The notes beneath the pieces are model-generated. The model had not been told where the DNA came from and made no database searches. It worked only from the letters and a program-made list of their open reading frames with translations. The translations under genes and the position numbers were made by a program. DNA of 64,000 bases. Source: an uncultured Eubacteriales bacterium. Its GTDB lineage: Bacteria > Bacillota > Clostridia > Peptostreptococcales > Anaerovoracaceae. This document shows, piece after piece, positions 19,934 to 53,042 of the stretch. Location of the stretch: the NCBI GenBank assembly GCA_902790905.1, contig CADATO010000007.1:3734-67733 (forward strand). Direction: 5' to 3'. Numbering within the stretch: position 1 is the stretch's first letter; every line of letters starts with the position of its first letter.

Positions 19934-20020
19934 GCGGATGTGGCGGAATTGGCAGACGCGCACGGTTCAGGTCCGTGTGAATGCAAGTTCATGGGGGTTC
20001 GAATCCCTTCATCCGCACCA
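19934..20020 (+). tRNA. tRNA-Leu (anticodon CAG), class II, encoded CCA
   Basis: GCGGATG acceptor, anticodon arm cacgg-TTCAGGT-ccgtg, long variable arm, T-loop GGTTCGAATCC, CATCCGC-A-CCA 3' end. Confidence 0.85.
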
Positions 20021-21606: not shown

Positions 21607-21635
21607 TTGACACTGGTCTAAGGCGGTGATATATT
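21607..21635 (+). promoter_or_regulatory. SigA-type promoter with extended -10, driving riboswitch 1
   Basis: TTGACA (21607-21612), 17-nt spacer containing TGa, TATATT (21630-21635). Confidence 0.65.
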
Positions 21636-21654
21636 CGTTGCGCAAATCTTAATA

Positions 21655-21842
21655 CTTTGCAGTGCAGACGGTAACAGTCTGATAATAGGGAACCAGGTGC
21701 AAATCCTGGACGATCCGGTCACTGTGAATGGGGAGTGTCCCGAGAGATACCATTGGGCATGTACCAGCGCCAGCCGGCGCCGCGGCATGTTTGAGAAGGT
21801 TCGGGCTACACGATGATCCATGAGTCAGGAAACCTGCTGCAG
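21655..21842 (+). promoter_or_regulatory. Cobalamin (B12) riboswitch aptamer, copy 1
   Basis: Conserved core AATAGGGAACCAGGTGCAAATCCTGG...CCGGTCACTGTGAA...GGGA... and B12 box GAGTCAGGAAACCTGC (21822-21837). P1 is ctttgcag/ctgca. Called by eye and not checked with a covariance model. Confidence 0.85.
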
Positions 21843-21921
21843 CGTGAGATTGGAATTGCTTCCGGAGAAAGCGCGTCCAACGATACAAGACGTTCTTACG
21901 TTGTTATCATGTGTCAATGAG

Positions 21922-21955
21922 CCTGCTTTCCGCGCAATGAGAAAGCAGGTTTTTT
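21922..21955 (+). terminator. Riboswitch 1 expression-platform terminator
   Basis: cctgctttc (21922-21930) pairs with gaaagcagg (21941-21949), followed by TTTTTT. It lies 68 nt before the start codon. Confidence 0.75.
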
Positions 21956-22023
21956 CATGGCGGAACCTTTTTCAGGAGTTTTCCGGAAGAATACGTTGTT
22001 GTTCTAGTTAGAAAGGAAAGGTA

Positions 22024-25000
22024 ATGAAAAAAGGTATTAGGAGAGTCATAGTGCTCCTTCTGGCACTGTCGATGGTCTTCACCACGACGGGCCTGCCTGC
22101 CTTTGCGGATACATCTGCATCCGGAGGTGCAGTTGCGACCGTACAGGGCACGGAGGATGCCACGCTCGAAAGTGTGCTGGAAAGAATCGGCGCTCTTTCC
22201 AATGATCCGAGGAACTTTACTGCTGACGATCAGGAAAGTATTGAAGCACTGTTTGCTGACTACAACGCTCTAAGCGCGGAGGATCAGGCGACCGTCGACA
22301 ATACGTTCCAGCATCCATCCGGCGATGGTCAGTCGTACGGCCGCATCCTTGAAGCGGCCCTTTGGACAGTGCGTTCGTTCAATACGGATACGAGCACAAC
22401 GCTCGCGAACGGAACCTATACCACAACGACAGAAAGAGCTGTCAGCTCCGTTTCGGACAAAGGCAAGAGCGATTCGAGCCGTACGAGGAACTGGTGGGTC
22501 GAGAGCGTTGTCGTAGAGAATGGTCAGGCCAAGGCTTATATTTATGTAACGTCCGGTGCGGCAACGGCAAGCAAACTGACCAGTTATCCGAGCGTATGGA
22601 TCGGCGGCAAGAGCGTCGAGAGAGATGAGAATAACAACTACGAGATCCCGGTGGACCTGAATGGAAGAACGTATTTTGGCGGTGTCTCCAGCAGCATGCC
22701 CAGACCCATTATGTATGCGCTGGACACCACGATTGAAGAACCTGCTGCGGAGGAGGATGCGGATTACAGCGTGGTAGATGCTGCGATAGCTGCGATCCCG
22801 GCTGACCTGAGCATTTATACAGATGAGAGCGTACAGGCACTGAACGCAGCAGTCGATGCAGTCGTACGCGGCAAGAAGGCTTCTGAACAGGACGCTGTCG
22901 ATGCTATGGCGGCAGCAATCAATGCCGCGATTGCTGCGCTGGAGGAAAAGACTCCTGCGCCGTCAGATGAAACCGTCTACACAGGCGACGACATCGAATT
23001 CAGCCATACAGGCAAAGACTTTGAACTGGTTGCGTGCGATAAAGTGATCGTTTCTGACACCGGCGCTGTTGCGGAAATCAAGCTTCAGTTCCCGGATCAA
23101 ATCGGTATTGAGCGCATCGCGCAGACAACTAAGGAGCCGACTGATACATCGCATGATCTGCAGTTCAAAAGCGACAGCCAGAAAATCGCGACAGTAATGG
23201 TTCCTGTTACGCTTGGTGAAGAAACCTCGCTATACGCTCTGGACGACGAGTTTGGAGAATGGTGGAATACTAAAATCACGGTCAATGTCACTGCACAGCA
23301 GCCTGACACACCTGAGGTCACGGAGCTCGAGATCGAGAATGAACAGGCTATGTTCAAGGCTGTCAGCGCTTCTCTTGAGACATATTCGGACGGCAGCCGC
23401 GTTCTCGTGTTCGCGCTGTCCAGCACAGGTTATATCGGTCTTTACAAAGGAACATACCCCGAAGCCGTTCAGGATAAAGATGCGATCGTCGCTGCGCTTG
23501 AGGCAAACGAGAGCACAGATAAGACCATCGTTTATCAGAAGAATGCAGACGGCAAATACGAGTTCCGCATCCCGCTGGATGAGGGACAGACATACATCCC
23601 GCTGATCTCAGTGTCGGCGAGAGGTTTCCAGAACCGTGCGACACAGCCCATCGAAGAGAAAGGCTTCTACGCCCGTCAGATTGAATTGCGCAATGACGGG
23701 ACAAAAATGTGGCTGGGCGACTACAATGAGACGACCGAGTTCACGCTGTCCACAGAACTGGAAGATTTCAAAGCTGAGACAGCTGTTTCTACCACCATCA
23801 AGGGTGGCCCTGTAAATAACAACTACAGTGTTGTGCCTACGATCACAATGCTGGATGGGACTTATGACTCTGTCACCTACCCGTCTGTTGTGAACAACGC
23901 AGTCAGCACTAAGACTGCAGCTCTCGAAGACGGCAAGTTCGTCATCAATATGGAGAATGCGCCGAACAAGAAGGCGTTCCAAGATAAGACGCCGCTGACA
24001 TTCACGTTCCATGTCGCAGAAGATGCTCCTTATGCGGAGGCGGGTACTGACGTAGAGCGTACGGTGACGTTCGACCAGATTGCCAAGACCGTTACCGTTG
24101 AAGGCACCGCACTGACGCCGAAGACAGAGCCTGTACTGGCGGACGGTACGTACACCGCCACAAAGGTGTCCACAGATGTCACCACAGATGCCAGTGGTAT
24201 GATCATGGTCACAAAGGCGACCGTTGTCATCAAAGACGGTCAGGCGACCGCCATCGTCACCATGAAGGGCACAGGCGCTGACAGACTTTATATCTCGGAT
24301 ACGGCGACAAAAGACACGATTATTAGTGAGGCGGTAGCGGAAGAGGCAAAAGAGATCGATGGTCAGTTCTCCAACCTCATCGGCTGTTACAATATGGAAG
24401 GTGAGAGCGCTTACAGCTTCTGGCCCATCCCGATCGAGCTTGGTACACCTAAAATCTACGCAGCCCGTTCCGCAAGCCATTTCAACAAGTGGGATACACC
24501 CCGCGAAAAATATTTCTACGTGCATGACTTCCAGATCGACGCAGCTGACCTTGTGCGCGTCAGTGATTCCACAGACATCATGTCGCCCGAAATCGACGCG
24601 GAGGTGCTCGTCAATCAGTTCTACGTGAACAATGGCATTTCCAGCAATCATGCAGGTGTCATCAAGGCAAAGAACGCAAATGTCACGGTGCCGTATTATG
24701 ATGGCGACACCAAGATTTCGAGCTTCAATTTCAAGCGTCCTGATGCGAGCGAGTATGTATCGGGCTGGTTCATCGACAACGATGGTCTGAACATGCTTAC
24801 AAGCAACAGCAAGAAGAAGGTCCGGTACCCCGGCTTTACGAGCGCGTTCTCGATGTCGAGTACAAAACGCGATGCCGGTGGGACATTCACAGCAACGCTG
24901 AAACTGTATCCTGCGGGCACGAATTACTATGAATACGATGCATCGGGTGTGCATTATTACACAGATTCCGATCATACCACTCCGGCAGAACCGGTTTTCG

Positions 25001-27957
25001 AGAAAACATTCACGGTTACAGTCGAAGAGAAGCCGCAGATCGATTTCAATGTGGGTGTTACCGTCACCGACCAGAAGAGCGGGGATGCGATTGCCGAACC
25101 GGTGATCACCGTGACCGATGAGTCGGATGACAGCGTTGTGACCCCCAATGAGGATGGCACATACAAGCTCAATGCATTGAAGAAGTATACCGTAGCTGCT
25201 TCTGCCGACGGATACGTCGCCCAGGGTGGTGCCGCGCAGGCAACCAAGACGGGATTCTGTCCCTCCAAGGAGGGTGAGATCGTATCTCTCAAGCTTCTGA
25301 AAGAAAGTGAAGCGTCCCACACCTTGACATTCAGTTTCACCGATCAGTTCGGTGAGGCGGTCGTCAATCCTGCCGTCAAGGTGACGAAATACGGCACAAC
25401 AGAAGAGGTGGCTGCGAACGCAGACGGTTCTTATACGCTGTGGGACAGCGAGGAGTACCGTTACGAGGCCACGGCTGAAGGTTATAAAACCGAGACAGGT
25501 TATCTCAGGCTGACGGAAGACAGTGCTGAAAGTGTCAAGATGAATAAGTACCTGTCCGAGTATAAGGTGACTTATACGATCAGGGATCAGGTCACAGACG
25601 AGGTGATTGAGAACCCCACACTTGTTCTCACGAACAATACGGATGGAACGACCATTCCGCAGAACGAGGACGGCAGCTTCACAGTGCCGGCTGACAAGAG
25701 CATTACGTGCGTTGCCAGCAAAGAAAATTACCAGAGTGAAGAATTCACGACGGTTACAGACTCTAGCATCAATTTCGAGCCTGAGATCAAGTACTCTTTC
25801 TCCCTGGAGCACAGTTACAAATGGCAGCTCGCTGACGAAATCAGTGCTGCGCAGGAGTATGCTGTCGGCATGGTCGAGTCTGACAAACCCGGCGAATGGG
25901 AGACGGGTTCCAAGGCTGCTCTGGAAGCGGCAATCAAAGACGCGCAGACCGCTCACGATAAAGCGGATGCGACGGAAGAGGATTTTGAAGAAGCGCTGAA
26001 GACCTTGAAAGCCGCTGAAAAGGCTGCTGCAAATGCGCAGCACTGGTTTGAGGCGAACGTGACTGTCCGTGTGAACAAGACACCGGGCAAAGAGGCGGAA
26101 CTCTACAAGTTCAAGGTGAGCGGCGAAGCCAGCAAGACCTATAAATATGCGGAACCGGCAAAAGTCGGAAAGCAGGTCTCCTTCATCGACGTGCTCGTTG
26201 CACTGCACGAGGAGATCTACGGAGATGCGTTCAAAGCAGAACCGACCAAGTACTTTGACTCTCAGAACGTTGGCTTCTACTATATTGGAAAGTTGTTCGA
26301 GCTGGGCAACTACTATCAGTTTGCTGTCAATGGCGAAAGCACTGGTAGTTACCAGAACTGCATCGTGAAGGATGGCGATGTGCTCGACGTATCGTTGCTG
26401 CAGAGGACCAATGACATCTTCCTGGCATTCGATCAACTCGAGGCGAAGACTAAGGCTGGCAGCGAATACACCACCACATTGCATGAAGGTGTGTCTGCCC
26501 AGAAACCTGCCGAGGGTTATACCGTTACGTATGCGGATGCGGAAGGACATGAGGTTTCCGGTGTCACCGACGCAGAGGGCAACCTTACCGTTACATTTGA
26601 GTATGATGGTGAATATACCATTAAGAGCGTTGTGACGGAAGACGCATCCAAAACGCTTGTGCAGCCGTATCAGAAAGTCACAGCCGATCAGGCTGCCGAC
26701 TACACAGCAGTAGACAAGGCGATTGCGTCGATCCCCGAGGATCTCAGCCCGTACACCGAAGTGACAGTGCAGGCTGTCAATGATGCGGTTGCAGCAGTTG
26801 ACCGCACGAAGACAGCATCCGATCAGGCTGACGTTGATGAAATGGCGAAGGCAATCGAAGACGCAGTCGCTGCATTGAAGGAACAGCCGGTTAAATTCTC
26901 TTATGATGGACAGGATGTAAGCTTCATCAATAAAGCCGGCTCCCAGTTTGGTATGCTGACTCCTCAGGATGGGACAACTGTCTCAATCAGTGGGAATAAT
27001 GTGGTCATCCATTATGTTCCGAAGAACAAGACGACATATGGAGGATTCAACTGGGGTTCTGTCGATATGCTCAAATATGGCGATGGGACTGTCAATCCGG
27101 GCTACGACGTGGCGTTCAATGATGATGGAACGATGGATCTGACTGTCAGCAAGGACTATTGCGGATATGCGCATCCTATCGCTGTGGTCAAGAGAAGTTT
27201 CTCAAAGAACACATGGACGAGTGCTGATCAGTATTATTTAGCGATTCCCGCACTTAAGTATTTTGATGCGGACTACAGTGCTGTCGAAGCAGCGAAGGCG
27301 AAGGTGCCGGCTGATCTGAGCATCTACACGGATGCAAGTGCACAGGCTGTTGTGAAGGCAGTAGCAGCTGTCATCGGAGGCAAGAAAGCCGATGAGCAGG
27401 CAGCAGTCGATGCAATGGCGCAGGCAATCGAAGACGCCGTTGCAGCTCTGAAAGTAAAAACAGGCTGGCAGCAGGAAGGCGGCAACTGGCATTACTATAG
27501 CAATGGCAGAATGCTGAAAAATGCCTGGGCTAAGGCAAATCAGGGCTGGTGCTGGATGGACGCCAATGGCAATTGGGTAAAGAATCAGTGGGTTCGTAAT
27601 AATGGAACCTGGTATTACATCAAGTCCAGCGGCTATATGGCAGCCAATGAATGGGTCAAGTCCGGCGGCAAGTGGTATTACACAAAAGCCAGTGGTGCTA
27701 TGGCAGCCAATGAATGGGTCAAGTCCGGCGGCAAGTGGTACTACGTAAAAACAAGCGGCGTTATGGCGGCGAATGAATGGGTTAAATCCGGCAGCCAGTG
27801 GTATTACATGAAAGCCAATGGCAGCATGGCAGCTGGTGAGTGGATCAAACCCGACGGAAACTGGTATTACTTGAAGTCAAACGGCGCCATGGCGACCGGA
27901 CGGCAGACAATCAACGGAAAGACGTATACATTTAACGCTTCCGGGAAACTGCTCTAA
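22024..27957 (+). CDS. Giant secreted multi-domain cell-surface protein (1977 aa) with C-terminal choline-type cell-wall-binding repeats. The proposed function, not demonstrated, is corrinoid capture.
   Basis: Signal peptide (..LPAFA/DT). Three FIVAR-like helical repeats, a ~265-aa module shared with the 860-aa protein, three PEGA/CarboxypepD_reg-like repeats, a DUF4430/transcobalamin-beta-like segment, and about 8 GW..G.WYY repeats at the C-terminus. It is the first gene after a B12 riboswitch. Confidence 0.9.
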   Translation: MKKGIRRVIVLLLALSMVFTTTGLPAFADTSASGGAVATVQGTEDATLESVLERIGALSNDPRNFTADDQESIEALFADYNALSAEDQATVDNTFQHPSGDGQSYGRILEAALWTVRSFNTDTSTTLANGTYTTTTERAVSSVSDKGKSDSSRTRNWWVESVVVENGQAKAYIYVTSGAATASKLTSYPSVWIGGKSVERDENNNYEIPVDLNGRTYFGGVSSSMPRPIMYALDTTIEEPAAEEDADYSVVDAAIAAIPADLSIYTDESVQALNAAVDAVVRGKKASEQDAVDAMAAAINAAIAALEEKTPAPSDETVYTGDDIEFSHTGKDFELVACDKVIVSDTGAVAEIKLQFPDQIGIERIAQTTKEPTDTSHDLQFKSDSQKIATVMVPVTLGEETSLYALDDEFGEWWNTKITVNVTAQQPDTPEVTELEIENEQAMFKAVSASLETYSDGSRVLVFALSSTGYIGLYKGTYPEAVQDKDAIVAALEANESTDKTIVYQKNADGKYEFRIPLDEGQTYIPLISVSARGFQNRATQPIEEKGFYARQIELRNDGTKMWLGDYNETTEFTLSTELEDFKAETAVSTTIKGGPVNNNYSVVPTITMLDGTYDSVTYPSVVNNAVSTKTAALEDGKFVINMENAPNKKAFQDKTPLTFTFHVAEDAPYAEAGTDVERTVTFDQIAKTVTVEGTALTPKTEPVLADGTYTATKVSTDVTTDASGMIMVTKATVVIKDGQATAIVTMKGTGADRLYISDTATKDTIISEAVAEEAKEIDGQFSNLIGCYNMEGESAYSFWPIPIELGTPKIYAARSASHFNKWDTPREKYFYVHDFQIDAADLVRVSDSTDIMSPEIDAEVLVNQFYVNNGISSNHAGVIKAKNANVTVPYYDGDTKISSFNFKRPDASEYVSGWFIDNDGLNMLTSNSKKKVRYPGFTSAFSMSSTKRDAGGTFTATLKLYPAGTNYYEYDASGVHYYTDSDHTTPAEPVFEKTFTVTVEEKPQIDFNVGVTVTDQKSGDAIAEPVITVTDESDDSVVTPNEDGTYKLNALKKYTVAASADGYVAQGGAAQATKTGFCPSKEGEIVSLKLLKESEASHTLTFSFTDQFGEAVVNPAVKVTKYGTTEEVAANADGSYTLWDSEEYRYEATAEGYKTETGYLRLTEDSAESVKMNKYLSEYKVTYTIRDQVTDEVIENPTLVLTNNTDGTTIPQNEDGSFTVPADKSITCVASKENYQSEEFTTVTDSSINFEPEIKYSFSLEHSYKWQLADEISAAQEYAVGMVESDKPGEWETGSKAALEAAIKDAQTAHDKADATEEDFEEALKTLKAAEKAAANAQHWFEANVTVRVNKTPGKEAELYKFKVSGEASKTYKYAEPAKVGKQVSFIDVLVALHEEIYGDAFKAEPTKYFDSQNVGFYYIGKLFELGNYYQFAVNGESTGSYQNCIVKDGDVLDVSLLQRTNDIFLAFDQLEAKTKAGSEYTTTLHEGVSAQKPAEGYTVTYADAEGHEVSGVTDAEGNLTVTFEYDGEYTIKSVVTEDASKTLVQPYQKVTADQAADYTAVDKAIASIPEDLSPYTEVTVQAVNDAVAAVDRTKTASDQADVDEMAKAIEDAVAALKEQPVKFSYDGQDVSFINKAGSQFGMLTPQDGTTVSISGNNVVIHYVPKNKTTYGGFNWGSVDMLKYGDGTVNPGYDVAFNDDGTMDLTVSKDYCGYAHPIAVVKRSFSKNTWTSADQYYLAIPALKYFDADYSAVEAAKAKVPADLSIYTDASAQAVVKAVAAVIGGKKADEQAAVDAMAQAIEDAVAALKVKTGWQQEGGNWHYYSNGRMLKNAWAKANQGWCWMDANGNWVKNQWVRNNGTWYYIKSSGYMAANEWVKSGGKWYYTKASGAMAANEWVKSGGKWYYVKTSGVMAANEWVKSGSQWYYMKANGSMAAGEWIKPDGNWYYLKSNGAMATGRQTINGKTYTFNASGKLL
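27463..27954 (+). repeat. About 8 tandem ~60-nt coding repeats encoding cell-wall-binding (CW_binding_1 / choline-binding-type) repeats
   Basis: Repeated peptide G(Y/A/V)MAANEWVKSGGKWYY(T/V)K.SG. Two units share a near-identical stretch gcagccaatgaatgggtcaagtccggcggcaagtggta. Confidence 0.85.
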
Positions 27958-27971
27958 CTGTTAGAAATGTG

Positions 27972-27997
27972 CAGGAGGCCGGCAATCCGGTCTCCTG
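27972..27997 (+). terminator. Stable hairpin after the giant gene; the T-tract is weak, so termination may be partial
   Basis: 11-bp stem caggaggccgg/ccggtctcctg with a 4-nt loop. No clear U-run follows it. Confidence 0.45.
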
Positions 27998-28005
27998 TCA
28001 CTACG

Positions 28006-28034
28006 TTGACATGAACTTGAAAGATTGATATATT
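28006..28034 (+). promoter_or_regulatory. SigA-type promoter with extended -10, driving riboswitch 2
   Basis: TTGACA (28006-28011), 17-nt spacer containing TGa, TATATT (28029-28034). The architecture is the same as the promoter at 21607. Confidence 0.65.
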
Positions 28035-28053
28035 TTTGGCGTATGACTAACTC

Positions 28054-28239
28054 CTTTGCAGTGCGGACGGTCTCCGTCCAGTAATAGGGAACCAGGTGCA
28101 AGTCCTGGACGATCCGGTCACTGTGAACAGGGAGTGCCCCTGAAAATACCATTGGACAAAGCTGCCGCTTTATGCGGCGGATTGTCTGAGAAGGTTCGGG
28201 GAGTGCTTTGATCTGTAAGTCAGGAAACCTGCTGCAAAG
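28054..28239 (+). promoter_or_regulatory. Cobalamin (B12) riboswitch aptamer, copy 2
   Basis: P1 is ctttgcag (28054-28061) pairing with ctgcaaag (28232-28239). Core AATAGGGAACCAGGTGCAAGTCCTGG..CCGGTCACTGTGAA. B12 box AAGTCAGGAAACCTGC. It is highly similar to copy 1. Confidence 0.85.
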
Positions 28240-28308
28240 AAGGATTGGAATCGCTTCCGCAGAAAGCAAGCCCAATGATACAATGCAAGTCATTGATTAA
28301 TGTGAGGG

Positions 28309-28346
28309 ACCCTGCTTTCTGTCATTCAGAATAGAAGGGTTTTTTC
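28309..28346 (+). terminator. Riboswitch 2 expression-platform terminator
   Basis: Bulged ~12-bp stem accctgctttctg / cagaatagaagggt followed by TTTTTT. agaaagca at 28261-28268 could pair with tgctttct (28313-28320) as an antiterminator. Confidence 0.65.
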
Positions 28347-28366
28347 ATAAAGGGGGATAGCTAGAC

Positions 28367-30949
28367 GTGAATAATCATTGTTACAAAAGAATTGCTGCTG
28401 TGTTCTTAGCCATCGCCATGGTCATGACACAGAGTCTTTTTGTGTTTGCTGATACGGATCCGGCTGCATCCGCACAGGAAGACAACACGCAGGTCACAGA
28501 ACCGGTCGTCGAGGAAACCGTTGCGGAAGAAGAGCCGGTTGTTCCCGAGACCGTGCCGGAGGAGACAGAAACACCTGCCGAAGAATCCGCAGAGCCCGCA
28601 GCTGAGGAAGAGACTTCTGCGACTGAAGTTGCCGAAGAAGCTGCGCCTGCAGCGGCGGAGGGGACCGTGGCAGCGGAAGAAAATACGGAATCCGGGAAGG
28701 CGGCTGAAGAGGCAGATCAACCAGCTGCGAAGAAAGCGGACGATACCAATAAAACGGATCTTGAGATCACGAACAAGACCGGGATGTTCAAAGCCGTCAG
28801 CGCGTATCTGATTACGGAGAACGGACAGGAGTACCTGGTGATGGCATTGTCCAGCACCGGCTACCATGAATTGTGCAAGGGCACATACGAACAGGCCGTC
28901 GCTGGCGGTGACGGAAGCAAGGACAAAGGAAATACCTGGGTTCATGGTGAAACGAATAAGGATGGAAAGCTGGAGTTCAAAATCCCGCTCAGTGCGGGCG
29001 AGTCATATGTCCCCTGCGTGGCAGTATCAGCTACATACTATACAAACTATTTGAATGGATGGAACAGCCTGGAAAGAGCTTTCTATCCGAGACAGTTCAC
29101 GATCGACAGAGCGGCGAAGACGCTGGTAACAGGCGATTACGATGAGACAGCCGCCTTTGCGGTCACATCAAACGTTGCAGACTTCAAAGCGGAGGCTGCT
29201 GCCTCGACACATATCGTCGGCGGTCCGAACTCCAACAACTACAATGTCGCACCGGTATTGACGATGCAGGACAACACCTATGATTATGTATTCTATCCGG
29301 CACTCGTCGGCGGTGAGATTGATGAGCTGGGCGGCGAAGCAGGGCTGGAGAATGGGCAGTTCGAGATCTCGCTGTTGAACGCCCCAACTTTGGAAGTGTT
29401 CAAAGATAAAACTCCGATCGAGATGATGTTCCATGTTGCGGCGAATGCGCCTTATGAAGAGGCGGGGGACAGTGTCCTGAGATACGTGACGATCGATAAG
29501 ATGGCAAAGACAATCACCATCACAGGTGACCCGCTGACACCGAAAAAGGAACAGACGGATCCTGCCGATCCATCCAAGCCGGACACCCCGTCCAAACCGG
29601 GCACCCCGTCCAAGCCGGATAAACCTGCAAAACCGGACAAACCTTCCGGCGGGGACAGCTCCCAGACGGATAAGAAGGAATACGCGGATAAGACCGATGG
29701 ACAGACATCGGCTGTCAATGCCAGCACGACACTGAAAGACGGCGAATACACACCGGACTCTTTCAGCTGGTCCGGCGGCACAAACAGAGTCAGCATCTCT
29801 TGTCCGAAGATCACTGTGAGAAACGGGCAGGCATATGCGACGATCGTATTTACCAGTTCGAGTTTCGACCAGCTCAGAGCGAACGGCAGCACGTATTATA
29901 AGCAGGGCGGCGGCAATTCAACATTTGTCATCCCCGTCAACCTCAACGCGAACAACACCATCATCGGCAGAACAACGGCCATGAGCCAGCCGCACTGGAT
30001 TGAGTACACGATCTACGTCGGCAAAGCGGAGTCCGCGGAAGATGCTGCCAAGGTGCAGGCAGCCAAAAAAGAAGCTGCAGAGGCCAAACTCAAGATGAGC
30101 GACACAGCCCCGACCATTATCGGCCTCAAGACCAAGGATGGGAAAGAGGCGAAGAGCGACACCTCGTATGCCAAGTATTTCAAGATCTTTGAATATGAGC
30201 AGGGGGTCAAATTAATCTCCATCGACATTTCGCAGGACACCGAGCTCCACAAGGAGTATACGGAGAATGCGGAAAAGGCGGTTGCGGACAGTGAGAAGGA
30301 AGAAACTGTCGAGTATGATGACGACGGTAATGTCATCACCAAGTCGCCCAACGAATATACAGAAGCACTGTACAAGAACAACATCGTCAATTACCTGCTT
30401 GTCCCGGAAGACTTCGAGGTGCCGGCAGGGCTTGATAAGGAATACATCATTGTAACAGTTCCGGCTGAGAAGACTTTCATGGCCTCCCCGGAAGCGATCA
30501 AGATGATGGAGGACCTGAAGTGTCTGGATGCGGTTTCGCTGCTCGGCATGGATGAAAAGGACGTCAAATCCGAAACGCTTGAAAAAGCACTGAAGGACGA
30601 TACTGTAAAACTTGCCGGTGACCTGGAAAAACCGGACTACCAGAAGGTTGTCAAGGATAAAACAGATCTGGTCATTCTGCCGGGCGATGTGCTGCCGGAA
30701 GAGATCAAGAAGGACGCCAAAGACAAGGATAAACTGACAGAAGAAGCCAAAGAGATGCAGAAAAACCTTGAAAAGCTGGAAAGCCGCTTCACGACTCTTG
30801 ACGCACCGGTCATTATCGACCGCTCCGCACAGGAGAAGGATGAACTGGCGCAGGCGGAATGGATCAAGGTGTATGGCGCACTCTACGGCTGCGAGGAGCA
30901 GGCGGATAAGATCTTTGACGAACTGGTGAAAAAGGCGGATAAGGAATGA
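28367..30949 (+). CDS. Secreted 860-aa multi-domain protein: acidic linker, the module shared with the giant protein, a P/K-rich spacer, a beta-sandwich-like module, and the N-lobe only of a BtuF/FecB-type binding protein. GTG start.
   Basis: Signal peptide (..SLFVFA/DT), E/A/P-rich region, shared module at 28757-29548, DPSKPDTPSKPGTPSKPDKPAKPDKP spacer. The C-terminal ~280 aa align with the first half of the downstream SBPs (APTIIGL.., LLVPEDFEVP, PDY, EWIKVYGALYGCEEQA). It is the first gene after riboswitch 2. Confidence 0.85.
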   Translation: MNNHCYKRIAAVFLAIAMVMTQSLFVFADTDPAASAQEDNTQVTEPVVEETVAEEEPVVPETVPEETETPAEESAEPAAEEETSATEVAEEAAPAAAEGTVAAEENTESGKAAEEADQPAAKKADDTNKTDLEITNKTGMFKAVSAYLITENGQEYLVMALSSTGYHELCKGTYEQAVAGGDGSKDKGNTWVHGETNKDGKLEFKIPLSAGESYVPCVAVSATYYTNYLNGWNSLERAFYPRQFTIDRAAKTLVTGDYDETAAFAVTSNVADFKAEAAASTHIVGGPNSNNYNVAPVLTMQDNTYDYVFYPALVGGEIDELGGEAGLENGQFEISLLNAPTLEVFKDKTPIEMMFHVAANAPYEEAGDSVLRYVTIDKMAKTITITGDPLTPKKEQTDPADPSKPDTPSKPGTPSKPDKPAKPDKPSGGDSSQTDKKEYADKTDGQTSAVNASTTLKDGEYTPDSFSWSGGTNRVSISCPKITVRNGQAYATIVFTSSSFDQLRANGSTYYKQGGGNSTFVIPVNLNANNTIIGRTTAMSQPHWIEYTIYVGKAESAEDAAKVQAAKKEAAEAKLKMSDTAPTIIGLKTKDGKEAKSDTSYAKYFKIFEYEQGVKLISIDISQDTELHKEYTENAEKAVADSEKEETVEYDDDGNVITKSPNEYTEALYKNNIVNYLLVPEDFEVPAGLDKEYIIVTVPAEKTFMASPEAIKMMEDLKCLDAVSLLGMDEKDVKSETLEKALKDDTVKLAGDLEKPDYQKVVKDKTDLVILPGDVLPEEIKKDAKDKDKLTEEAKEMQKNLEKLESRFTTLDAPVIIDRSAQEKDELAQAEWIKVYGALYGCEEQADKIFDELVKKADKE

Positions 30950-32154
30950 GTAGAACAAAAAGAATAATCGCAGCGCTGCTGGTGCTGTGCATGGTACTGT
31001 GTTTCGGCCTGACAGCATGCAGCAGCGATGGCACGGACTCCTCTGCAGCGGTTCCGGAAGGATCTGCCGCATCTGCGGATCCGACACAGACAGATATGAC
31101 TTCCGCACCGGAGATCGAAGGGCTGACCTTCGAGTCGGAGCTGGAACGGGAGTATGCGACCCAGTTCAATGTGTTCCGCTACGAAGGCGGCTACAAGTAC
31201 TTCCACATCGTGGACGGCGACGACTTCCTGCTGGTCCCGGAGGATGGAGACGTGCCGGAAGATCTGCCGGAGGATGTAACGGTCCTGCAGGCGCCGGTCG
31301 AGAACATTTATCTGGCGGCAACTGCACAGATGGCGCTTTTCGTCAGCATGGGCGGCGAAGATTCGCTGCGTATGACATCCCTTAAGCAGGATGGCTGGAC
31401 GTTTGACGAGCCGAAAAAACTGCTGGATGACGGCGCGCTTCTCTTTGCCGGCAAATACAGCGAACCCGACTACGAAATGTTGATCGACGAGAACTGCGAG
31501 CTGGCAATTGAGTCAACAATGATATATCATACTCCTGAGGTCAAGGAGATGATCGAAGAGCTGGGCATTCCGGTCCTGGTGGACCATTCCAGCTATGAAA
31601 GCAACCCGCTGGGCCGTATGGAATGGATCAAATTCTACGGGGAACTGATCGGCAAAGAAGAGGAAGCCAAGGCGTTCTACGATGAGCAGAAGGCCAAGGT
31701 GGAAGCACTGGAAGACTTTGAGAATACCGAAAAGACAGTCGCGTTTTTCTACATCTCCACAGACGGCAAGGCGATGGTCAGAAGAGGGGATGACTATATC
31801 CCGGCGATGATCGAGATGGCCGGTGCAAGATACATCTTTAAGGATGTGGATGACGGCTCCGGTAAGCAGACCATCCCGATGACCATGGAAGCTTTCTACG
31901 ACATTGCGAAGGATGCGGACTATATCGTATACAACGCTTCGATCGACAGCTCGGTCAAGACGCTGGACGATCTTCTGGCTAAGGATCCGGTCATCAAGGA
32001 GATGAAAGCGGTCAAAGAAGGGAACTGCTGGTCTTCCGGCGGTGCGATGTATCAGCGGACGGATATTGCCGGTGATATGATCCTGGACTTCCATACGCTG
32101 TTTACTTCGGATGATCCGGAATCCGAGCTGAATTACATCACAAAACTCAAATAG
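30946..32154 (+). CDS. ABC-transporter substrate-binding lipoprotein, Peripla_BP_2 (BtuF/FecB) type, copy 1
   Basis: Lipobox GLTAC, then APEIEGLTF.. and both lobes of a class III SBP (..EWIKFYGELIGKEEEA..). ATGA overlap with the preceding gene. Confidence 0.85.
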   Translation: MSRTKRIIAALLVLCMVLCFGLTACSSDGTDSSAAVPEGSAASADPTQTDMTSAPEIEGLTFESELEREYATQFNVFRYEGGYKYFHIVDGDDFLLVPEDGDVPEDLPEDVTVLQAPVENIYLAATAQMALFVSMGGEDSLRMTSLKQDGWTFDEPKKLLDDGALLFAGKYSEPDYEMLIDENCELAIESTMIYHTPEVKEMIEELGIPVLVDHSSYESNPLGRMEWIKFYGELIGKEEEAKAFYDEQKAKVEALEDFENTEKTVAFFYISTDGKAMVRRGDDYIPAMIEMAGARYIFKDVDDGSGKQTIPMTMEAFYDIAKDADYIVYNASIDSSVKTLDDLLAKDPVIKEMKAVKEGNCWSSGGAMYQRTDIAGDMILDFHTLFTSDDPESELNYITKLK

Positions 32155-32166
32155 TAAAGAAGTATT

Positions 32167-33240
32167 ATGAGTCAGGGAAAAGAAATGCAGAATACGGGTG
32201 CCGCGGGGAGTTTTCGTCAGGAAAACTTCCGGCGGCGCAGTCGCTATATAACGGTATTCGCAGTACTGGCAATCGCCTTCTGCGTGATTATCGTGATCAA
32301 CATCAATTCGGGGAATGTCAACATCCCCATTTCGCGGATCCTGGATATACTGTTCACCAGAGACGGAGATCCGAAAGAAGTCGATATCATCTGGACGATC
32401 CGGCTGCCCCGGATCCTGATGGCGGCCATGCTGGGCGGCGCTCTTAGCCTGTCCGGCTTTTTGCTGCAGACATTCTTTGAGAACCCGATCGCGGGTCCGT
32501 TCGTCCTCGGTATTTCGTCGGGCGCAAAGATGGTCGTCGCCTTCACGATGATCTACAGCATGAGCCTCGGCTACACGATGTCGTCCTACACGATGATCGG
32601 GGCAGCCTTCATCGGCTCGCTGATGTCCATCGGCTTCATATTGCTGGTGGCGCGGCGGATCAAGAATATGGCGGCACTGCTCGTCGCCGGCATCATGATC
32701 GGCTATATCTGTTCAGCTGTCACGGACTTCATCGTCACATTCGCGAGCGACAGCGACATCGTCAACCTGCACGGCTGGTCTCTTGGCAGCTTCTCCGGCA
32801 TGAGCTGGAGCAACGTGCATATCACGGTCGTCGTGGTCGGCATGACGCTGGTGCTGACGTTCCTGTGCTCCAAGCCCATCGGCGCGTACCAGCTGGGCGA
32901 AGCGTATGCGCAGAGCATCGGCGTCAACATTAAGTTCTTTAGAATCGCTCTGATCCTGCTTTCGAGCATCTTCTCGGCCACGGTCACAGCGTTCGCGGGC
33001 CCGATCTCCTTTGTCGGCATCGCGGTACCGTTCCTGATCAAAGGGGCGCTTGGCACCTCCAAGCCCATCGTCGTCATCCCGGCGACCTTTGTGGGCGGCG
33101 GCGTGTTCTGTATGTTCTGCGACCTGATTGCAAGACTGGCCTTTGCACCGCTGGAACTCAACATCAGCACCGTCACGTCGATCTTCGGCGCGCCGGTTGT
33201 GATTTACATGATGATCAACAGACGGAGGGGCATGAAATGA
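32167..33240 (+). CDS. ABC-transporter permease, FecCD/BtuC family
   Basis: 357 aa with about 9-10 TM segments. Family-typical IWTIRLPRILMAAMLGGALSLSG and GAPVVIYMM near the C-terminus. Confidence 0.88.
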   Translation: MSQGKEMQNTGAAGSFRQENFRRRSRYITVFAVLAIAFCVIIVININSGNVNIPISRILDILFTRDGDPKEVDIIWTIRLPRILMAAMLGGALSLSGFLLQTFFENPIAGPFVLGISSGAKMVVAFTMIYSMSLGYTMSSYTMIGAAFIGSLMSIGFILLVARRIKNMAALLVAGIMIGYICSAVTDFIVTFASDSDIVNLHGWSLGSFSGMSWSNVHITVVVVGMTLVLTFLCSKPIGAYQLGEAYAQSIGVNIKFFRIALILLSSIFSATVTAFAGPISFVGIAVPFLIKGALGTSKPIVVIPATFVGGGVFCMFCDLIARLAFAPLELNISTVTSIFGAPVVIYMMINRRRGMK

Positions 33241-34337
33241 GTGAGAAATATTTCGAGCTTTCCAACCTCTCTGTTGGATATAACAAGAAAACACTTATCC
33301 ACGACATCTGTCTGGATATCAAGAAGGGCGAGATCGTCACCCTGATCGGGCCGAACGGCGCCGGCAAGTCGACGATCTTAAAGAGTATCACGAGACAGCT
33401 CGAGATCATCGGCGGCAAGGTCCTGTTCGACAGCAAGGAGATCCGGTCGATTTCGTACAAGGATCTGTCCACCCGCATGGCGGTCGTGCTGACGGATCGC
33501 CTCAAGACAGAGCTGCTGACCTGCCACGACATCGTCGCCACAGGCCGCTATCCGTACACTGGGCGGCTGGGCATCCTCTCGCACGAGGATGAGGAAAAGG
33601 TCGATAATGCGCTGCGGGCGGTCAATGCGCTCGATCTGGGCAACCGCGACTTCAATGCGATTTCGGACGGGCAGAAACAGCGCGTCCTGCTGGCAAGAGC
33701 CATCTGTCAGGAACCGGAGATCATCATCCTCGATGAGCCGACCTCCTTCCTGGACATCCGCTACAAGCTGGAACTGCTGAGCATCCTCGGGCGCATGGCC
33801 AAGCAGAACTGCATCACCATCATCATGACGCTGCACGAGATCGATCTGGCGCAGAAGATTTCCGACAAGATCGTCTGCGTTTCCGGCGACCACGTCACAA
33901 GATACGGCTCGCCGCAGGAGGTCTTCCGGGAAGACATCATCCGGGATCTGTACAACATCGACAACGGTTTCTTCGACCCGATGTTCGGTTCGATCGAACT
34001 GATGAAACCGTCCGGGGAAACACCGGAAGTCTTCGTTATCAGCGCGGGCGGGACAGGCATTCCCGTGTTCCGCGAACTGCAGAAGACCAACACAGCATTT
34101 GCGGCAGGGATTCTCTACGAGAACGATATGGACTACCAGCTCGCCAGACTGCTGGCCTGCGAGGTGGTCACGGAAAAACCTTTCGAGGCGATCAGCGATG
34201 CCGCCTTCGACAGAGCGAAAGCACTGATCGACAGCTGCAGCCGTGTCATCAACGCGGGCCTTCACATCGGCACGCAGAACAGCCGCATGCAGGCGCTGCT
34301 GGACTACGCGAAGGAGACAGGCAAACTGGAGATGTAG
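33237..34337 (+). CDS. ABC-transporter ATP-binding protein (BtuD/FecE-like) with an extra ~110-aa C-terminal domain
   Basis: Walker A GPNGAGKST, signature SDGQKQR and Walker B IIILDEPTSFLD. An unassigned extension follows from about aa 258. ATGA overlap with the permease gene. Confidence 0.88.
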   Translation: MSEKYFELSNLSVGYNKKTLIHDICLDIKKGEIVTLIGPNGAGKSTILKSITRQLEIIGGKVLFDSKEIRSISYKDLSTRMAVVLTDRLKTELLTCHDIVATGRYPYTGRLGILSHEDEEKVDNALRAVNALDLGNRDFNAISDGQKQRVLLARAICQEPEIIILDEPTSFLDIRYKLELLSILGRMAKQNCITIIMTLHEIDLAQKISDKIVCVSGDHVTRYGSPQEVFREDIIRDLYNIDNGFFDPMFGSIELMKPSGETPEVFVISAGGTGIPVFRELQKTNTAFAAGILYENDMDYQLARLLACEVVTEKPFEAISDAAFDRAKALIDSCSRVINAGLHIGTQNSRMQALLDYAKETGKLEM

Positions 34338-34346
34338 GAGGGACCT

Positions 34347-35156
34347 ATGGCACAAGACAAAGCGATCCTGGTCGTCAGTTTCGGCACCAGCTACAAAGAG
34401 ACAAGAGAAAAAACCATCGGCGCCATCGAAAAAGCGATCGGCGCCGCCTATCCGGACTGGGAGGTGCGCCGCGCCTTCACGTCCGGTTTTATTATGAAAA
34501 AGATCCTGCGCGAGGAGGGGCTTAAGATCAGCAACGTCGAGGAATCGCTCCGCCAGATGGCCGAAGACGGCATTAAAGACGTGATTGTCCAGCCGACCCA
34601 TATGATGAACGGCGGCGAATACGACAAACTCATTGGACAGTGCCAGGCCGTGCAGGACCAGTTTGAAGGATTCCGTGTCGGCGCACCGCTGCTGACCGAC
34701 GCAGGGGACTTTGAACAACTTGCGGAAGCGATTACAAAAGCGACGGAAGCCTGCGATGACGGGCAGACGGCGATCTGTTTCATGGGGCACGGCACGAATG
34801 CGGAGTCCAATGCGGTCTATACGGAACTGCAGAACACCCTGCAACGAGCCGGGCACGACCACCATTACATCGGCACCGTAGAGGCCACGCCTTCGCTGGA
34901 GGATCTTCTGGCGGCTGTGAAAGCAGAGCCGATATACAAAAGGGTCGTCCTGCAGCCGCTGATGGTCGTCGCCGGCGATCATGCGATCAACGACATGGCG
35001 GGCGATGAAGAGGACAGCTGGAAGAGCTCTTTTGCGGCAGCCGGATATGATGTACACTGTATTCTGGAGGGTCTGGGGGAGAACCCGGACGTGCAGCAGA
35101 TGTATGTGCGGCATGTGGCCGATGCGATGAGACGGTTGGAAGAGGAATCGAAATGA
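34347..35156 (+). CDS. cbiK: Sirohydrochlorin cobaltochelatase (anaerobic pathway)
   Basis: 269 aa. KAILVVSFGTSY N-terminus, FMGHGT motif, no signal peptide. Confidence 0.85.
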   Translation: MAQDKAILVVSFGTSYKETREKTIGAIEKAIGAAYPDWEVRRAFTSGFIMKKILREEGLKISNVEESLRQMAEDGIKDVIVQPTHMMNGGEYDKLIGQCQAVQDQFEGFRVGAPLLTDAGDFEQLAEAITKATEACDDGQTAICFMGHGTNAESNAVYTELQNTLQRAGHDHHYIGTVEATPSLEDLLAAVKAEPIYKRVVLQPLMVVAGDHAINDMAGDEEDSWKSSFAAAGYDVHCILEGLGENPDVQQMYVRHVADAMRRLEEESK

Positions 35157-36334
35157 CAGAGCGCAGAACGACATCACGGAATGGATATCGGAACAGACGG
35201 ACGGTGTGGGCGGTCCTGCTCATGGTGCTGCTGTGCACCGCACTGCTCGCAGGGTGCGGGCAGAAGAACGCGGAGGCCGATGGCGGCGCACCGGAGATCG
35301 AAGGGCTGACATTTGACCACGAGATGGAACTCGCGTATGCGGACCAGTTTCATGTATACTATTATAATGACGATTATGAGGTCATCACCGTCGAGGGCGG
35401 CGAGGACTACATGCTGATTCCGGAAGGCGGGGAGATCCCGGCCGGGACGCCGGAAGAGATGGTTGTCATCGAAAAGCCGGTGGACAATATCTATCTGGCG
35501 GCATCCTCTGCGATGGCGCTGTTCAAGTCGATGGATGCGCTGGATACCATTGCCTTCTCCGGCACAAAGGCGGATGACTGGTATATCGAAGAGGCGGCGG
35601 AGGCCATGAACAGCGGCAAGATCGCCTTTGCCGGCAAGTACAGCTCTCCGGACTACGAGATGCTGCTCGATGAAGGGTGCGATCTGGCCATCGAGTCGAC
35701 CATGATCACCCACGCGCCGGAAGTCAAAGAAAAAATCGAAGAACTCGGTATCCCGGTCTTCGTGGATCACTCCAGCTACGAGAGCCACCCGCTCGGCAGG
35801 GTCGAGTGGATCCGGCTTTACGGTGTCCTGACCGACCACGAAGAGCAGGCGGATGCGTTCTTCAATGAGCAGGCGAAGATCATCGAAGAGATGGCGGACA
35901 TCGAAGACACCGGCAAGACAGTGGCGTTCTTCTTTGTGAACTCCAACGGGCAGGTCGTGGTGCGTGCTGGCGATGACTACATCCCGCACATGATCGACAT
36001 CGCGGGCGGTGAATACATCTTCCCGGATCTGGTCAACGAGGACAGCGAGATGGCTTCAATGAAGATTTCCATGGAGGAATTCTACGCCGGCGCGGTGGAT
36101 GCGGATTATCTTATCTACAACGCTTCGATCGAGAGCCCGCTCACGAGCCTCGACCAGCTCTACGACAAGTCGGATGCCTTCAGGGAATTCAAGGCCGTCA
36201 AGGAAGGCCACGTCTACACAACGGATAAATACCTGTATCAGGCGACGGACATCACCGGCGAACTCATCCGCGACATCCACACGATGCTGACGGAGGACGG
36301 CGGCGAGATGACGTTCCTGACCAAGGTCGAATAG
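35153..36334 (+). CDS. ABC-transporter substrate-binding lipoprotein, Peripla_BP_2 (BtuF/FecB) type, copy 2 (paralog of 30946-32154)
   Basis: Lipobox LLAGC, then APEIEGLTFDHEMELAYADQF.., collinear with copy 1 throughout. ATGA overlap with cbiK. Confidence 0.85.
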   Translation: MTERRTTSRNGYRNRRTVWAVLLMVLLCTALLAGCGQKNAEADGGAPEIEGLTFDHEMELAYADQFHVYYYNDDYEVITVEGGEDYMLIPEGGEIPAGTPEEMVVIEKPVDNIYLAASSAMALFKSMDALDTIAFSGTKADDWYIEEAAEAMNSGKIAFAGKYSSPDYEMLLDEGCDLAIESTMITHAPEVKEKIEELGIPVFVDHSSYESHPLGRVEWIRLYGVLTDHEEQADAFFNEQAKIIEEMADIEDTGKTVAFFFVNSNGQVVVRAGDDYIPHMIDIAGGEYIFPDLVNEDSEMASMKISMEEFYAGAVDADYLIYNASIESPLTSLDQLYDKSDAFREFKAVKEGHVYTTDKYLYQATDITGELIRDIHTMLTEDGGEMTFLTKVE

Positions 36335-37581: not shown

Positions 37582-37647
37582 ACGGCGGCAGCACATGGCT
37601 GCCTGAACAGATAGAAGAGTACAACTAGTTAAAACGGAGGAAATCAA

Positions 37648-39497: not shown

Positions 39498-39512
39498 AAA
39501 AAGGAGATATCA

Positions 39513-42216: not shown

Positions 42217-42228
42217 GACGGAGAATCT

Positions 42229-44630: not shown

Positions 44631-44639
44631 GGACAGAGC

Positions 44640-47260: not shown

Positions 47261-47307
47261 GGAATTGGCAAAAGGAGCATCTCTGCGCTTGCAAAGGAGT
47301 AATAGAT

Positions 47308-50774: not shown

Positions 50775-50856
50775 AGCCTGACGCAGCACGGCGGACCGGC
50801 ATCCGTGGCAGGTCCTCGTCGCAGGCGGGCATCTGCGCTCGCTCAGAAAGAAACGA

Positions 50857-50917
50857 AAACCCCGGACAAACTCGCAGCTTACGCTGCTCAGACAGTGTCC
50901 GGGGTTTGGTTTCTTTT
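50857..50917. terminator. Bidirectional terminator between convergent genes
   Basis: aaaccccggaca (50857-50868) pairs with tgtccggggttt (50896-50907). T-run downstream and A-rich run upstream. Confidence 0.65.
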
Positions 50918-50987
50918 TGCTTCACTTCGCTGGTGCCCGCAGCTGCTCCTGCGGAATAGCCACGGATGCCGGTCCGCCGTGCTTGCG

Positions 50988-52976: not shown

Positions 52977-53042
52977 CTTCTTTCTCCTTATCACGTGACG
53001 CTGCACTGGTTATCGCGGTATGCCGCGTTGCCCGCATTCGCG

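Follow-up and report, generated by a model that had tools for sequence, protein, structure and literature searches.

In Isd systems, which are iron-regulated through Fur, NEAT domains pass heme to the class III substrate-binding protein (SBP) IsdE. The relay runs from IsdH/B/A/C to IsdE and on to IsdF, and IsdX2 and Hal of Bacillus anthracis are counted with it. Cobalamin-riboswitch regulons, in turn, are narrow in content. In Bacteroides, BtuG, BtuH, BtuJ (DUF4465) and BtuK are accessory extracellular proteins encoded with the B12 transporter behind cobalamin riboswitches; these Gram-negative outer-membrane lipoproteins, whose B12 affinities have been measured, feed the TonB-dependent BtuB, one locus has two riboswitch-plus-promoter units, and a multi-step capture and hand-off has been proposed (PMC13616437). 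The subject here is a 64,000-nucleotide stretch of DNA from an uncultured Eubacteriales bacterium (contig CADATO010000007.1, positions 3,734 to 67,733; hereafter the window), in which two cobalamin riboswitches head the genes of two large secreted proteins, termed A and B. For Gram-positive bacteria, a 2026 review calls extracellular cobamide capture 'entirely uncharacterized' and mentions only homologs of BtuH and BtuJ (PMC13616437). This agrees with the preliminary description of the locus, which knew of no wall-anchored capture proteins in Firmicutes, and in the literature searched, no account of NEAT-like or wall-anchored proteins under B12 control in that phylum came to light.

A and B, together with the importer encoded behind B, probably belong to a corrinoid-acquisition regulon of a Gram-positive anaerobe with a hitherto undescribed extracellular layer. 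The regulon and its architecture, as predicted from the sequence, are nearly certain. That the extracellular domains capture corrinoids, a role assigned by analogy with the Isd relay, is rather likely.

Each of the two genes is preceded by a cassette of promoter, B12 aptamer and terminator. Plain coordinates are window positions throughout, on the + strand unless stated. An Rfam scan of the whole window yields two cis-regulatory RNAs in total, both of them cobalamin riboswitch aptamers on the + strand: aptamer 1 at 21643..21855 (RF00174, 97.4 bits, E 4.6e-23, full model length) and aptamer 2 at 28042..28250 (RF00174, 101.1 bits, E 4e-24). Both cover model positions 1-189 and score well above the RF00174 gathering score of 31.5 bits, so that the two leaders hold as full-length cobalamin riboswitches under the covariance model. 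Promoter 1 (21607..21635) reads TTGACA-17-TATATT with an extended -10 TG and agrees with 11 of 12 consensus positions. Promoter 2 (28006..28034) has identical hexamers and the same 11 of 12 agreement, and the two are the sole matches of that quality within the 7 kb scanned. The expression platforms end in GC-rich terminator hairpins followed by U6, predicted by ViennaRNA folding at 21921..21955 in cassette 1 (GCCUGCUUUC...GAAAGCAGG) and at 28309..28345 in cassette 2, where they begin 66 nt and 59 nt past their aptamers, respectively. Because the loops exceed 8 nt, both terminators are absent from a pattern scan and were found by folding. The two cassettes thus lie where the preliminary description had placed them. 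By the standard mechanism of this riboswitch class, low intracellular corrinoid would allow RNA polymerase to read through past both terminators.

The first open reading frame (ORF) after cassette 1 encodes protein A (22024..27957), a secreted, wall-bound protein of 1977 aa. The first ORF after cassette 2 encodes protein B (28367..30949), a secreted, unanchored protein of 860 aa whose gene starts with GTG after the Shine-Dalgarno sequence GGGGGA. The signal peptides of A and B span aa 1-28 and end FA/DT, as had been read from the sequence at the outset (AFA/DT in A, VFA/DT in B), and a motif scan of the two proteins finds no LPXTG, no (S/N)PXTG and no hydrophobic segment beyond the signal peptide. 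A carries its anchor at the C-terminus, in eight choline-binding (cell-wall-binding) repeats at 27469..27954 (PF01473, PF19127, PF19085). Direct reading of aa 1816-1977 counts eight repeats of ~20 aa, as against the about eight first reported; PF01473 matches at 9e-22 (76.6 bits, with a cut-off of 20.5), and the region retrieves LytA/CbpF/Cpl-1-type PDB entries down to 1.5e-60. The choline-binding proteins of streptococci and clostridia (LytA, CbpF, PspA, toxin CROPs) share this C-terminal array of eight ~20-aa repeats with A and differ from it in everything N-terminal to the anchor.

The two proteins are joined by a shared module, A aa 424-702 and B aa 121-395, that is 46% identical (E 2e-63) and in which Pfam, NCBIfam and PDB sequence searches recognise nothing. 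Its AlphaFold2 model, computed from a 21-sequence alignment, has a pLDDT of 92.4 and consists of two beta-sandwich domains, MODa and MODb. These correspond to aa 431-558 and 562-693 of A (23314..24102) by family hidden Markov models (HMMs), and to aa 130-255 and 252-386 of B (28754..29524) by similarity to A and by the model. The module had been described as a ~265-aa element found nowhere else in the window. This stands at the level of high similarity and fails at the level of profiles, where superfamily copies appear elsewhere in A and B; the module as a unique element is rejected, and it is a tandem of two diverged copies of one superfamily.

That superfamily unites MODa and MODb with four further domains, NL1, NL2, X1 and NL_B, according to hhalign profile comparison and family HMMs. 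Independently built alignments of MODa and of the NL2-type domains match at 99.0% (hhalign, E 6e-18), and those of NL_B and the NL2 type at 95.9% (E 5.5e-9). By the family HMMs A has five copies, with X2 as a borderline sixth, and B has three; none lies elsewhere in the window. In A, copy 1 is NL1 (aa 124-246, 22393..22761), identified by a family HMM match and by hhalign between NL families, and copy 2 is X1 (aa 309-428, 22948..23307), which matches NL1 at 93% and NL_B at 91% with an X1 alignment of three rows only. Copies 3 and 4 are the module, and copy 5 is NL2 (aa 704-848, 24133..24567), the nearest of all to canonical NEAT. The X2 domain (aa 1624-1743, 26893..27252) matches MODa at 64.6% in hhalign, a borderline NEAT-like relation, and recurs in related loci. 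B begins with an acidic linker (aa 29-125) ahead of its module and adds NL_B (aa 453-564, 29723..30058), a beta-sandwich defined by its family alignment and by a model of pLDDT 85.8. Near-invariant residues in that alignment are D-G-x-Y, W-S-G-G, C and M-S-x-x-H...Y.

The relation to NEAT rests on the NL2-type branch. Ten of its 21 members match Pfam NEAT (PF05031) at E<=0.01, with a best value of 3.4e-7, and one homolog, P0118, passes the cut-off (36.1 against 32.8 bits). Against solved structures, the profile of the NL2 type finds the NEAT entries 4H8Q/4H8P along its entire length (E 4e-4). A's own NL2 domain reaches E 0.002 and 18.6-18.9 bits, below the cut-off, and the other superfamily copies of the window have no Pfam NEAT match. 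The domains are termed NEAT-related here, and not NEAT members, because the window copies are sub-threshold and the NL_B model has no significant PDB neighbour. In the alignment of the NL2 type with 4H8Q, the second tyrosine of the NEAT YxxxY motif is kept as W-Y-D and the lip motif as s-M-F. The first tyrosine, the iron ligand, gives way to a variable N, G, D, K or Q in 21 of 21 NL2-type members. This makes the superfamily a putative remote relative of NEAT without the iron-binding tyrosine, and the loss fits a tetrapyrrole ligand whose metal would already be axially coordinated and would need no axial ligand from the protein. An equation of the NL_B 'H-x3-Y' with the NEAT 'Y-x3-Y' was set aside, as the hhalign register gives no confident mapping.

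B ends in half of a BtuF-like binding protein, as the preliminary description had proposed. Its aa 576-856 (30092..30934) form an N-lobe-only class III SBP domain ('half BtuF'), the profile of which aligns solely to the N-terminal extension and N-lobe of the two lipoprotein SBPs encoded downstream (SBP2 aa 44-241 and SBP1 aa 53-249) and stops in their inter-lobe helix. The domain is kept in >268 proteins with an identical end point. Among the 120 best B-type matches, 24 continue into a transmembrane (TM) anchor, a hydrophobic helix followed by KKKQTKKR (P0094, P0103-P0139), and since this helix comes directly after it, the half-SBP of the anchored homologs would sit at the membrane surface. 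The 'PDYE' glutamate of SBP1 and SBP2, which may correspond to the permease-docking N-lobe residue of class III SBPs (Glu72 of E. coli BtuF), is replaced by K, A, R or Q in 83 of the 83 half-SBP rows aligned there and is never E. Because this glutamate is absent, the half-SBP is unlikely itself to dock on the permease.

These features bear on the suspicion that the large proteins are unconnected with corrinoids, either because their riboswitch position is incidental or because the ORFs are artefacts such as a frameshifted SBP or a shadow ORF. The proteins are indeed unannotated, but the arrangement recurs in >50 species and hundreds of contigs, both structural models are of high confidence, and neither the signal peptides nor the choline-binding repeats are damaged. 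In particular, a frameshift or truncation of an SBP gene is rejected as the origin of the half-SBP, given its constant end point in >268 homologs, the TM anchor that some of them carry after it and the separate lipoprotein signal of the next gene. This explanation is barely credible.

The importer follows directly, and the translational coupling first described is present. The gene of SBP1 (30946..32154; lipobox LTAC, Peripla_BP_2) overlaps the stop of B as ATGA. Behind it come a BtuC-like permease of the FecCD family (32167..33240; PF01032, E 4.6e-73), an ABC ATPase with a C-terminal extension (33237..34337; PF00005, 1.5e-30), a cytoplasmic CbiK cobalt chelatase (34347..35156; PF06180, E 4e-83, with a Pfam match from residue 5) and a second lipoprotein, SBP2 (35153..36334; lipobox LAGC, Peripla_BP_2). 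The two SBPs match PF01497 at 3e-35 and 6e-38. The best NCBIfam match of the ATPase is 'corrinoid ABC transporter ATPase' (NF007082, E 1.6e-61, near full length and below that family's cut-off). It is 366 aa long, and its extension of ~110 aa is kept in all related loci; homologs of the ATPase carry PF27219 (MJ0874). A class III SBP, a FecCD permease and an ABC ATPase in one riboswitch-controlled operon are the composition of a BtuFCD-type importer (Peripla_BP_2, FecCD, ABC_tran). The locus departs from that type in having two paralogous lipoprotein SBPs with a third, N-lobe-only copy fused to B, in the extension of the ATPase, and in SBPs that show no detectable sequence match to solved BtuF in PDB searches. 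From the riboswitch control and the cbi context, the substrate is presumably a corrinoid.

The preliminary description ended the system at 36334 (span 21607-36334). The operon extends beyond it, through cbi genes to 48018. In Pfam order the remainder (36367..48018) consists of CbiD, TP_methylase, CbiG, TP_methylase, CbiJ and TP_methylase, followed by a CobB/CobQ-type amidase (CbiA family), CobD/CbiB, a class I/II aminotransferase, a second CobB/CobQ-type amidase and CbiC; the cbi names in this part are inferred from the Pfam families. Gaps between genes range from -10 to +66 nt through CbiC, one overcalled start aside, and because the genes run so tightly packed to 48018, riboswitch 2 is taken to head a 19.6-kb operon of which B is the first gene. 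On this gene content the organism counts as a de novo corrinoid producer. The overcalled start concerns the CbiB ORF (43509-44630, GTG start), which overlaps the preceding CbiA-type amidase gene by 154 nt; since its Pfam match begins at residue 58, the true start probably lies further downstream.

Comparison across genomes places homologs of the module and of B systematically beside or behind cobalamin riboswitches, linked to SBP, FecCD and ATPase genes, in dozens of species, which is the association that the preliminary description had put forward for study. A degenerate-pattern scan for the module, with one genome per GTDB species, finds 53 loci, each from a different GTDB species and mostly from rumen and gut: Lachnospiraceae, Oscillospiraceae, Blautia, Ruminococcus, Bilifractor, Anaerobutyricum, Lentihominibacter and two Eggerthellaceae. 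A word-indexed protein search with the module returns 20 proteins, all unnamed or 'hypothetical'. In the first seven loci, 145 kb in all, Rfam detects 11 cobalamin riboswitches, and a covariance model of our own, built from twelve of the aptamers and giving rough E-values, yields 60 strong matches over all loci (849 kb). A same-strand riboswitch lies <=300 nt upstream of the module ORF in 19 of 53 loci, and at 1-6.5 kb upstream, heading a same-strand gene string, in 9-10 of 53. In 8-9 of the 53, of a Blautia/Ruminococcus type, the module gene stands back-to-back with a riboswitch that drives NL-NL-NL-halfSBP, SBP, FecCD and ATPase. Four have a riboswitch only just downstream, and most of the remainder end at contig edges. 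Where at least ~6.4 kb of upstream sequence is available, a match falls within ~6.5 kb of the gene in all 29 of 29 loci; one of these, L026 from Eggerthellaceae, scores 22 bits with our own model and has an Rfam-threshold riboswitch directly upstream. For the 300-nt, strand-specific interval, a rough estimate puts the random expectation at ~1% of loci, against 36% observed.

B-type proteins, defined by NL_B plus the half-SBP, number >268, some of them in clusters of 200-600 members, and none is functionally named. In four of four contigs chosen only for their length, the order is riboswitch, B-type gene, Peripla_BP_2, FecCD, ABC. A metagenome scan with the NEAT-like domain alone as query (an alignment of 7 sequences) gave >401 relatives, from which 80 loci, mostly labelled human gut, were taken. 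A same-strand riboswitch lies 0.9-4.4 kb upstream (median 1.1 kb) in 70 of the 80, and nine of the ten loci without one have <=1.3 kb of upstream sequence. Their commonest gene order is riboswitch, a gene for NEAT-like domain plus NL_B plus half-SBP, SBP, FecCD and ATPase. In the species-level loci, a mapping with the window's own segments finds one domain kit (NEAT-related domains, X2, helical spacers, half-SBP) variously arranged, always with SBP, FecCD and ATPase and often with CbiK.

Several individual loci show further arrangements. Isolates with a locus of this kind include Blautia glucerasea (L044), Bilifractor porci (L020) and Lachnospiraceae FE2018 (L007). The closest relative of the window, L004 (an ENA ERZ4902655 contig), has full synteny: riboswitch, A-like gene, riboswitch, B-like gene, SBP, FecCD, ATPase, CbiK, SBP and CbiD. 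Its large genes are split into short ORFs, probably by assembly frameshifts, so that such proteins are likely under-represented in databases. In the Blautia/Ruminococcus-type loci L032, L036, L043, L045, L046, L051, L052, L053 and L005, a second riboswitch-led operon with CbiK converges on the module gene. Two metagenome loci, L106 and L107, agree in gene order and almost exactly in domain scores; L106 has a 137-bit riboswitch at 5846-6034, and in L107 none reaches E<=0.001 within 7 kb of upstream sequence. In L059 and L060 a second cobalamin riboswitch (1410-1597) lies 4 kb upstream of the B-type operon and precedes genes for 419-aa and 196-aa proteins with no Pfam match and for a Na+/alanine symporter-family protein. 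In L001, the gene at 3112-4971 stands between those of the ATPase and a stand-alone module protein (P0004), and its 619-aa LRR_5 product is X2-like in its N-terminal domain. Bacteroides BtuL is a receptor-L-domain (LRR-like) lipoprotein in a B12 locus (PMC13616437), and the L001 protein may parallel it. In a Blautia locus, L039, a Clostridiales-1 sRNA (RF01699; 8239-8346) adjoins the module gene.

One element of the original argument for protein A does not survive. A segment of A (aa 1343-1469, 26050..26430) had been likened to DUF4430 (PF14478), the transcobalamin/intrinsic-factor beta-domain family. PF14478 gives no Pfam match to protein A even at E<=10, and a word-indexed protein search with the segment gave no match. 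An exhaustive HMMER search with it finds 57 relatives; ten of these were scanned, and PF14478 is absent from all ten, which are surface proteins of large size that carry SLH, SpaA or prealbumin-like domains. The profile of the segment's family matches nothing in the PDB, and no transcobalamin, intrinsic-factor or DUF4430 structure is retrieved. The resemblance is a superficial end motif (..VNG/VNN....GD..) only; DUF4430 in A is rejected as unsupported by every sequence test, and the segment represents a separate small family of surface-protein domains.

Taken together, these parts suggest the following route for corrinoids. Transcript 1 would supply protein A, held on the wall by its eight choline-binding repeats and displaying five or six NEAT-related domains on helical and Ig-like spacers. 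Transcript 2 would supply protein B, with three NEAT-related domains and the half-SBP, coupled to the SBP, FecCD permease, ATPase, second SBP and cbi genes. By analogy with the heme relay of Isd, the beta-sandwich domains would bind corrinoids (cobamides or cobinamide-type precursors) outside the cell, and the corrinoid would be passed inward from A to B, to the lipoprotein SBP and to the permease and ATPase. The half-SBP of B may serve as a membrane-proximal hand-off or adaptor module to the full SBP. The narrow content of cobalamin-riboswitch regulons and the precedent of the Isd relay are the reasons for inferring a corrinoid relay. The NEAT homology provides an independent mechanistic precedent for the idea, and is also compatible with some of the domains binding proteins. 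Of the extracellular corrinoid-scavenging layer put forward in the preliminary description, the regulatory and genetic linkage is thus borne out across dozens of species, and the DUF4430 argument is not; nor does either structural model match the Btu proteins or transcobalamin. A more specific version, in which the NEAT fold has been re-used for cobamides and an Isd-like corrinoid relay operates in Clostridia of gut and rumen (Blautia, Lachnospiraceae, Oscillospiraceae, some Eggerthellaceae), falls a little short of an even chance. In it, tyrosine-less NEAT-derived domains would capture the corrinoid outside and the N-lobe-only SBP domain would hand it on to BtuF.

Several results weigh against corrinoid capture by these domains, in their folds, in the comparative sample, in the transporter and in the operon. 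Foldseek against the PDB finds nothing at E<=1e-3 for the module model (best 2.6e-3), and its neighbours are generic tandem Ig proteins (KIR, SiiE), with the two-NEAT units of IsdH/IsdB weak at E 6e-3 to 5e-2. The NL_B model does no better than E 0.14, with weak NEAT similarity (TM 0.40 for IsdB, 0.33 for Hal). BtuG, BtuH, BtuJ, BtuK, BtuF and transcobalamin are absent from the top 50 Foldseek matches of both models, so that a fold relation of the module or NL_B to any of them is rejected; at the sequence level, the PDB yields no informative match to SBP1, to B as a whole or to the profiles of the module and of NL_B. The window domains stay below the NEAT cut-off, as the bit scores of A aa 704-848 show. 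In the comparative sample, the E-values of our own covariance model are rough, the module gene of the Blautia-type loci has itself no riboswitch in front, and the 80 metagenome loci are redundant close orthologs, for which reason the 53 species-level loci are the better sample.

NEAT domains without YxxxY (IsdH-N1/N2, IsdB-N1) bind proteins and not heme, and the loss of the tyrosine is equally compatible with such a role here. Because of this equal fit, the chief rival to capture is a role as receptor or adhesin, in which the proteins would recognise proteins, vesicles or producer cells that carry corrinoids, as IsdH-N1/N2 and IsdB-N1 recognise hemoglobin, and the SBP alone would bind the cofactor. 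The absence of the iron-ligand tyrosine from all NL2-type members is what that rival expects from protein-binding NEAT domains, the very large multi-domain architecture with spacers and a wall anchor is adhesin-like, and tandem Ig adhesins and receptors of a generic kind (SiiE, KIR) are as good a match to the models as any. Yet the core unit in gut loci is short, a single or double NEAT-like domain joined to NL_B and the half-SBP and encoded right before the SBP, and looks more like a chain for handing on a ligand than like an adhesin. Pocket-like motifs (sMF, WYD, M-S-x-x-H...Y) are strongly conserved, and no partner protein is consistently encoded nearby. A receptor or adhesin role is unlikely, if still worth considering.

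The transporter raises the question of heme. Among solved structures, the SBPs lie closest to heme/siderophore binders, Lmo2184 (4e-8) and IsdE (3e-4), and together with the NEAT homology this might point to a system of the Isd kind that serves heme, or a tetrapyrrole other than a corrinoid, and has come under B12 control incidentally. The system resembles Isd in that secreted or wall-held proteins with multiple NEAT-type beta-sandwich domains are encoded beside a FecCD permease and a lipoprotein SBP of class III. Control here lies with cobalamin riboswitches, in contrast to iron there, and dozens of species have such a riboswitch at the head of these operons. The transporter genes are part of cbi operons, beside CbiK and CbiD, and the ATPase, with its C-terminal extension, belongs to the corrinoid type. 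The surface proteins are anchored by choline-binding repeats, by a TM helix or not at all, A and B have no LPXTG, and the Pfam-scanned genes of the window include no sortase and no IsdG-type heme oxygenase. The locus further differs from Isd in the N-lobe-only SBP domain fused to the last beta-sandwich, and in domains that fall below the Pfam NEAT threshold and recover no NEAT structure significantly in Foldseek. Since the cbi context is joined by the loss of the heme-iron tyrosine, a heme system under B12 control is very unlikely.

The operon itself supplies the last difficulty, for it includes the genes of the anaerobic cbi pathway, CbiK through CbiC, and a cell so equipped does not obviously need to scavenge. 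The surface proteins might instead serve the producer's own corrinoid economy, by retaining or recapturing self-made cobamides and late intermediates at the surface (privatisation) or by chaperoning corrinoids in remodelling. B is the first gene of the same 19.6-kb operon as the whole cbi pathway, and CbiK and CbiD also occur in many related loci. The same operon type can include a secreted CbiK-domain protein. That protein (L061:589-2466, also L062:424-2301) is the 625-aa product of the first gene after a riboswitch. It combines a signal peptide that ends FAFA/DT with an X2-like domain (..DLGMFSP..), a helical domain, the entire chelatase domain of CbiK and, at its C-terminus, an Ig/fn3-like domain. 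Encoded upstream of the B-type gene and SBP-FecCD-ABC, it looks like a secreted protein of the class II chelatase fold. Many loci, however, consist of a B-type gene with SBP, FecCD and ATPase and have no biosynthesis genes nearby. This alternative, which is quite improbable, would still require corrinoid binding and is a variant of the capture explanation more than a true alternative to it.

The remaining parts of A and the surroundings of the regulon are as follows. A helical N-terminal domain (aa 44-97, 22153-22314) precedes NL1. After NL2 come a domain at aa 858-1003 and about three prealbumin/CarboxypepD_reg-like spacers at aa ~1005-1270 (together 24595..25833; PF13715, 27.7 bits, below cut-off). 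Identification of the helical spacers with FIVAR (PF07554) is rejected, as all matches are below its cut-off (best E 0.0038, 18.3 bits against 29.2). A 980-aa antisense ORF (23608-26550, - strand) lies wholly within gene A and is most likely a shadow ORF of this GC-rich (57%) genome, because all homology evidence is on the + strand. The flanks are unrelated to the system, with UvrC, a GH25 lysozyme, a tRNA and an HTH-Uma2 protein upstream and RadA and others downstream. The window's tRNA genes are at 19934-20017 (+), 1.6 kb upstream of riboswitch 1, and at 961-1045 (-). A 963-aa ORF with a GTG start at 50805-53696 has no Pfam match at E<=1e-5 and no NEAT-related copy.

The novelty proposed here is a relay that would capture a cofactor at the cell surface and is built from new domain families and a new half-SBP module. 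It is a member of neither the Isd nor the Bacteroides Btu system. With the latter it shares accessory extracellular proteins, encoded with a B12 transporter behind two riboswitch-plus-promoter units, and the idea of capture in steps. The folds are unrelated: propeller, BtuH or jelly-roll structures (8P98, 7BIZ, 9I2L, 9S6C) are matched neither in Pfam, nor in PDB sequence searches with A, B or the module profile, nor by Foldseek with the module and NL_B models. Wall-bound and secreted proteins here would lead to a lipoprotein SBP, unlike the outer-membrane lipoproteins that serve BtuB. The A/B-type proteins are the best current candidate for a Gram-positive B12-capture system.

Corrinoid competition shapes gut communities, and to our knowledge extracellular corrinoid-capture machinery is known only for Bacteroidota. 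The several hundred loci related to the one described here represent a large unannotated secreted family that includes abundant human-gut genera such as Blautia, and with their boundaries defined the domains are amenable to expression and B12 titration. If they bind corrinoids, NEAT domains would gain a second class of cofactor, the half-SBP would be defined as a new hand-off module, and genome-based predictions of B12 scavengers in gut and rumen would need revising. If the NEAT fold has indeed been re-used for cobamides, these Clostridia would possess a Gram-positive counterpart of Bacteroides BtuG/H/J/K, built from unrelated parts, and would be a major unseen player in the competition for B12 in the gut.

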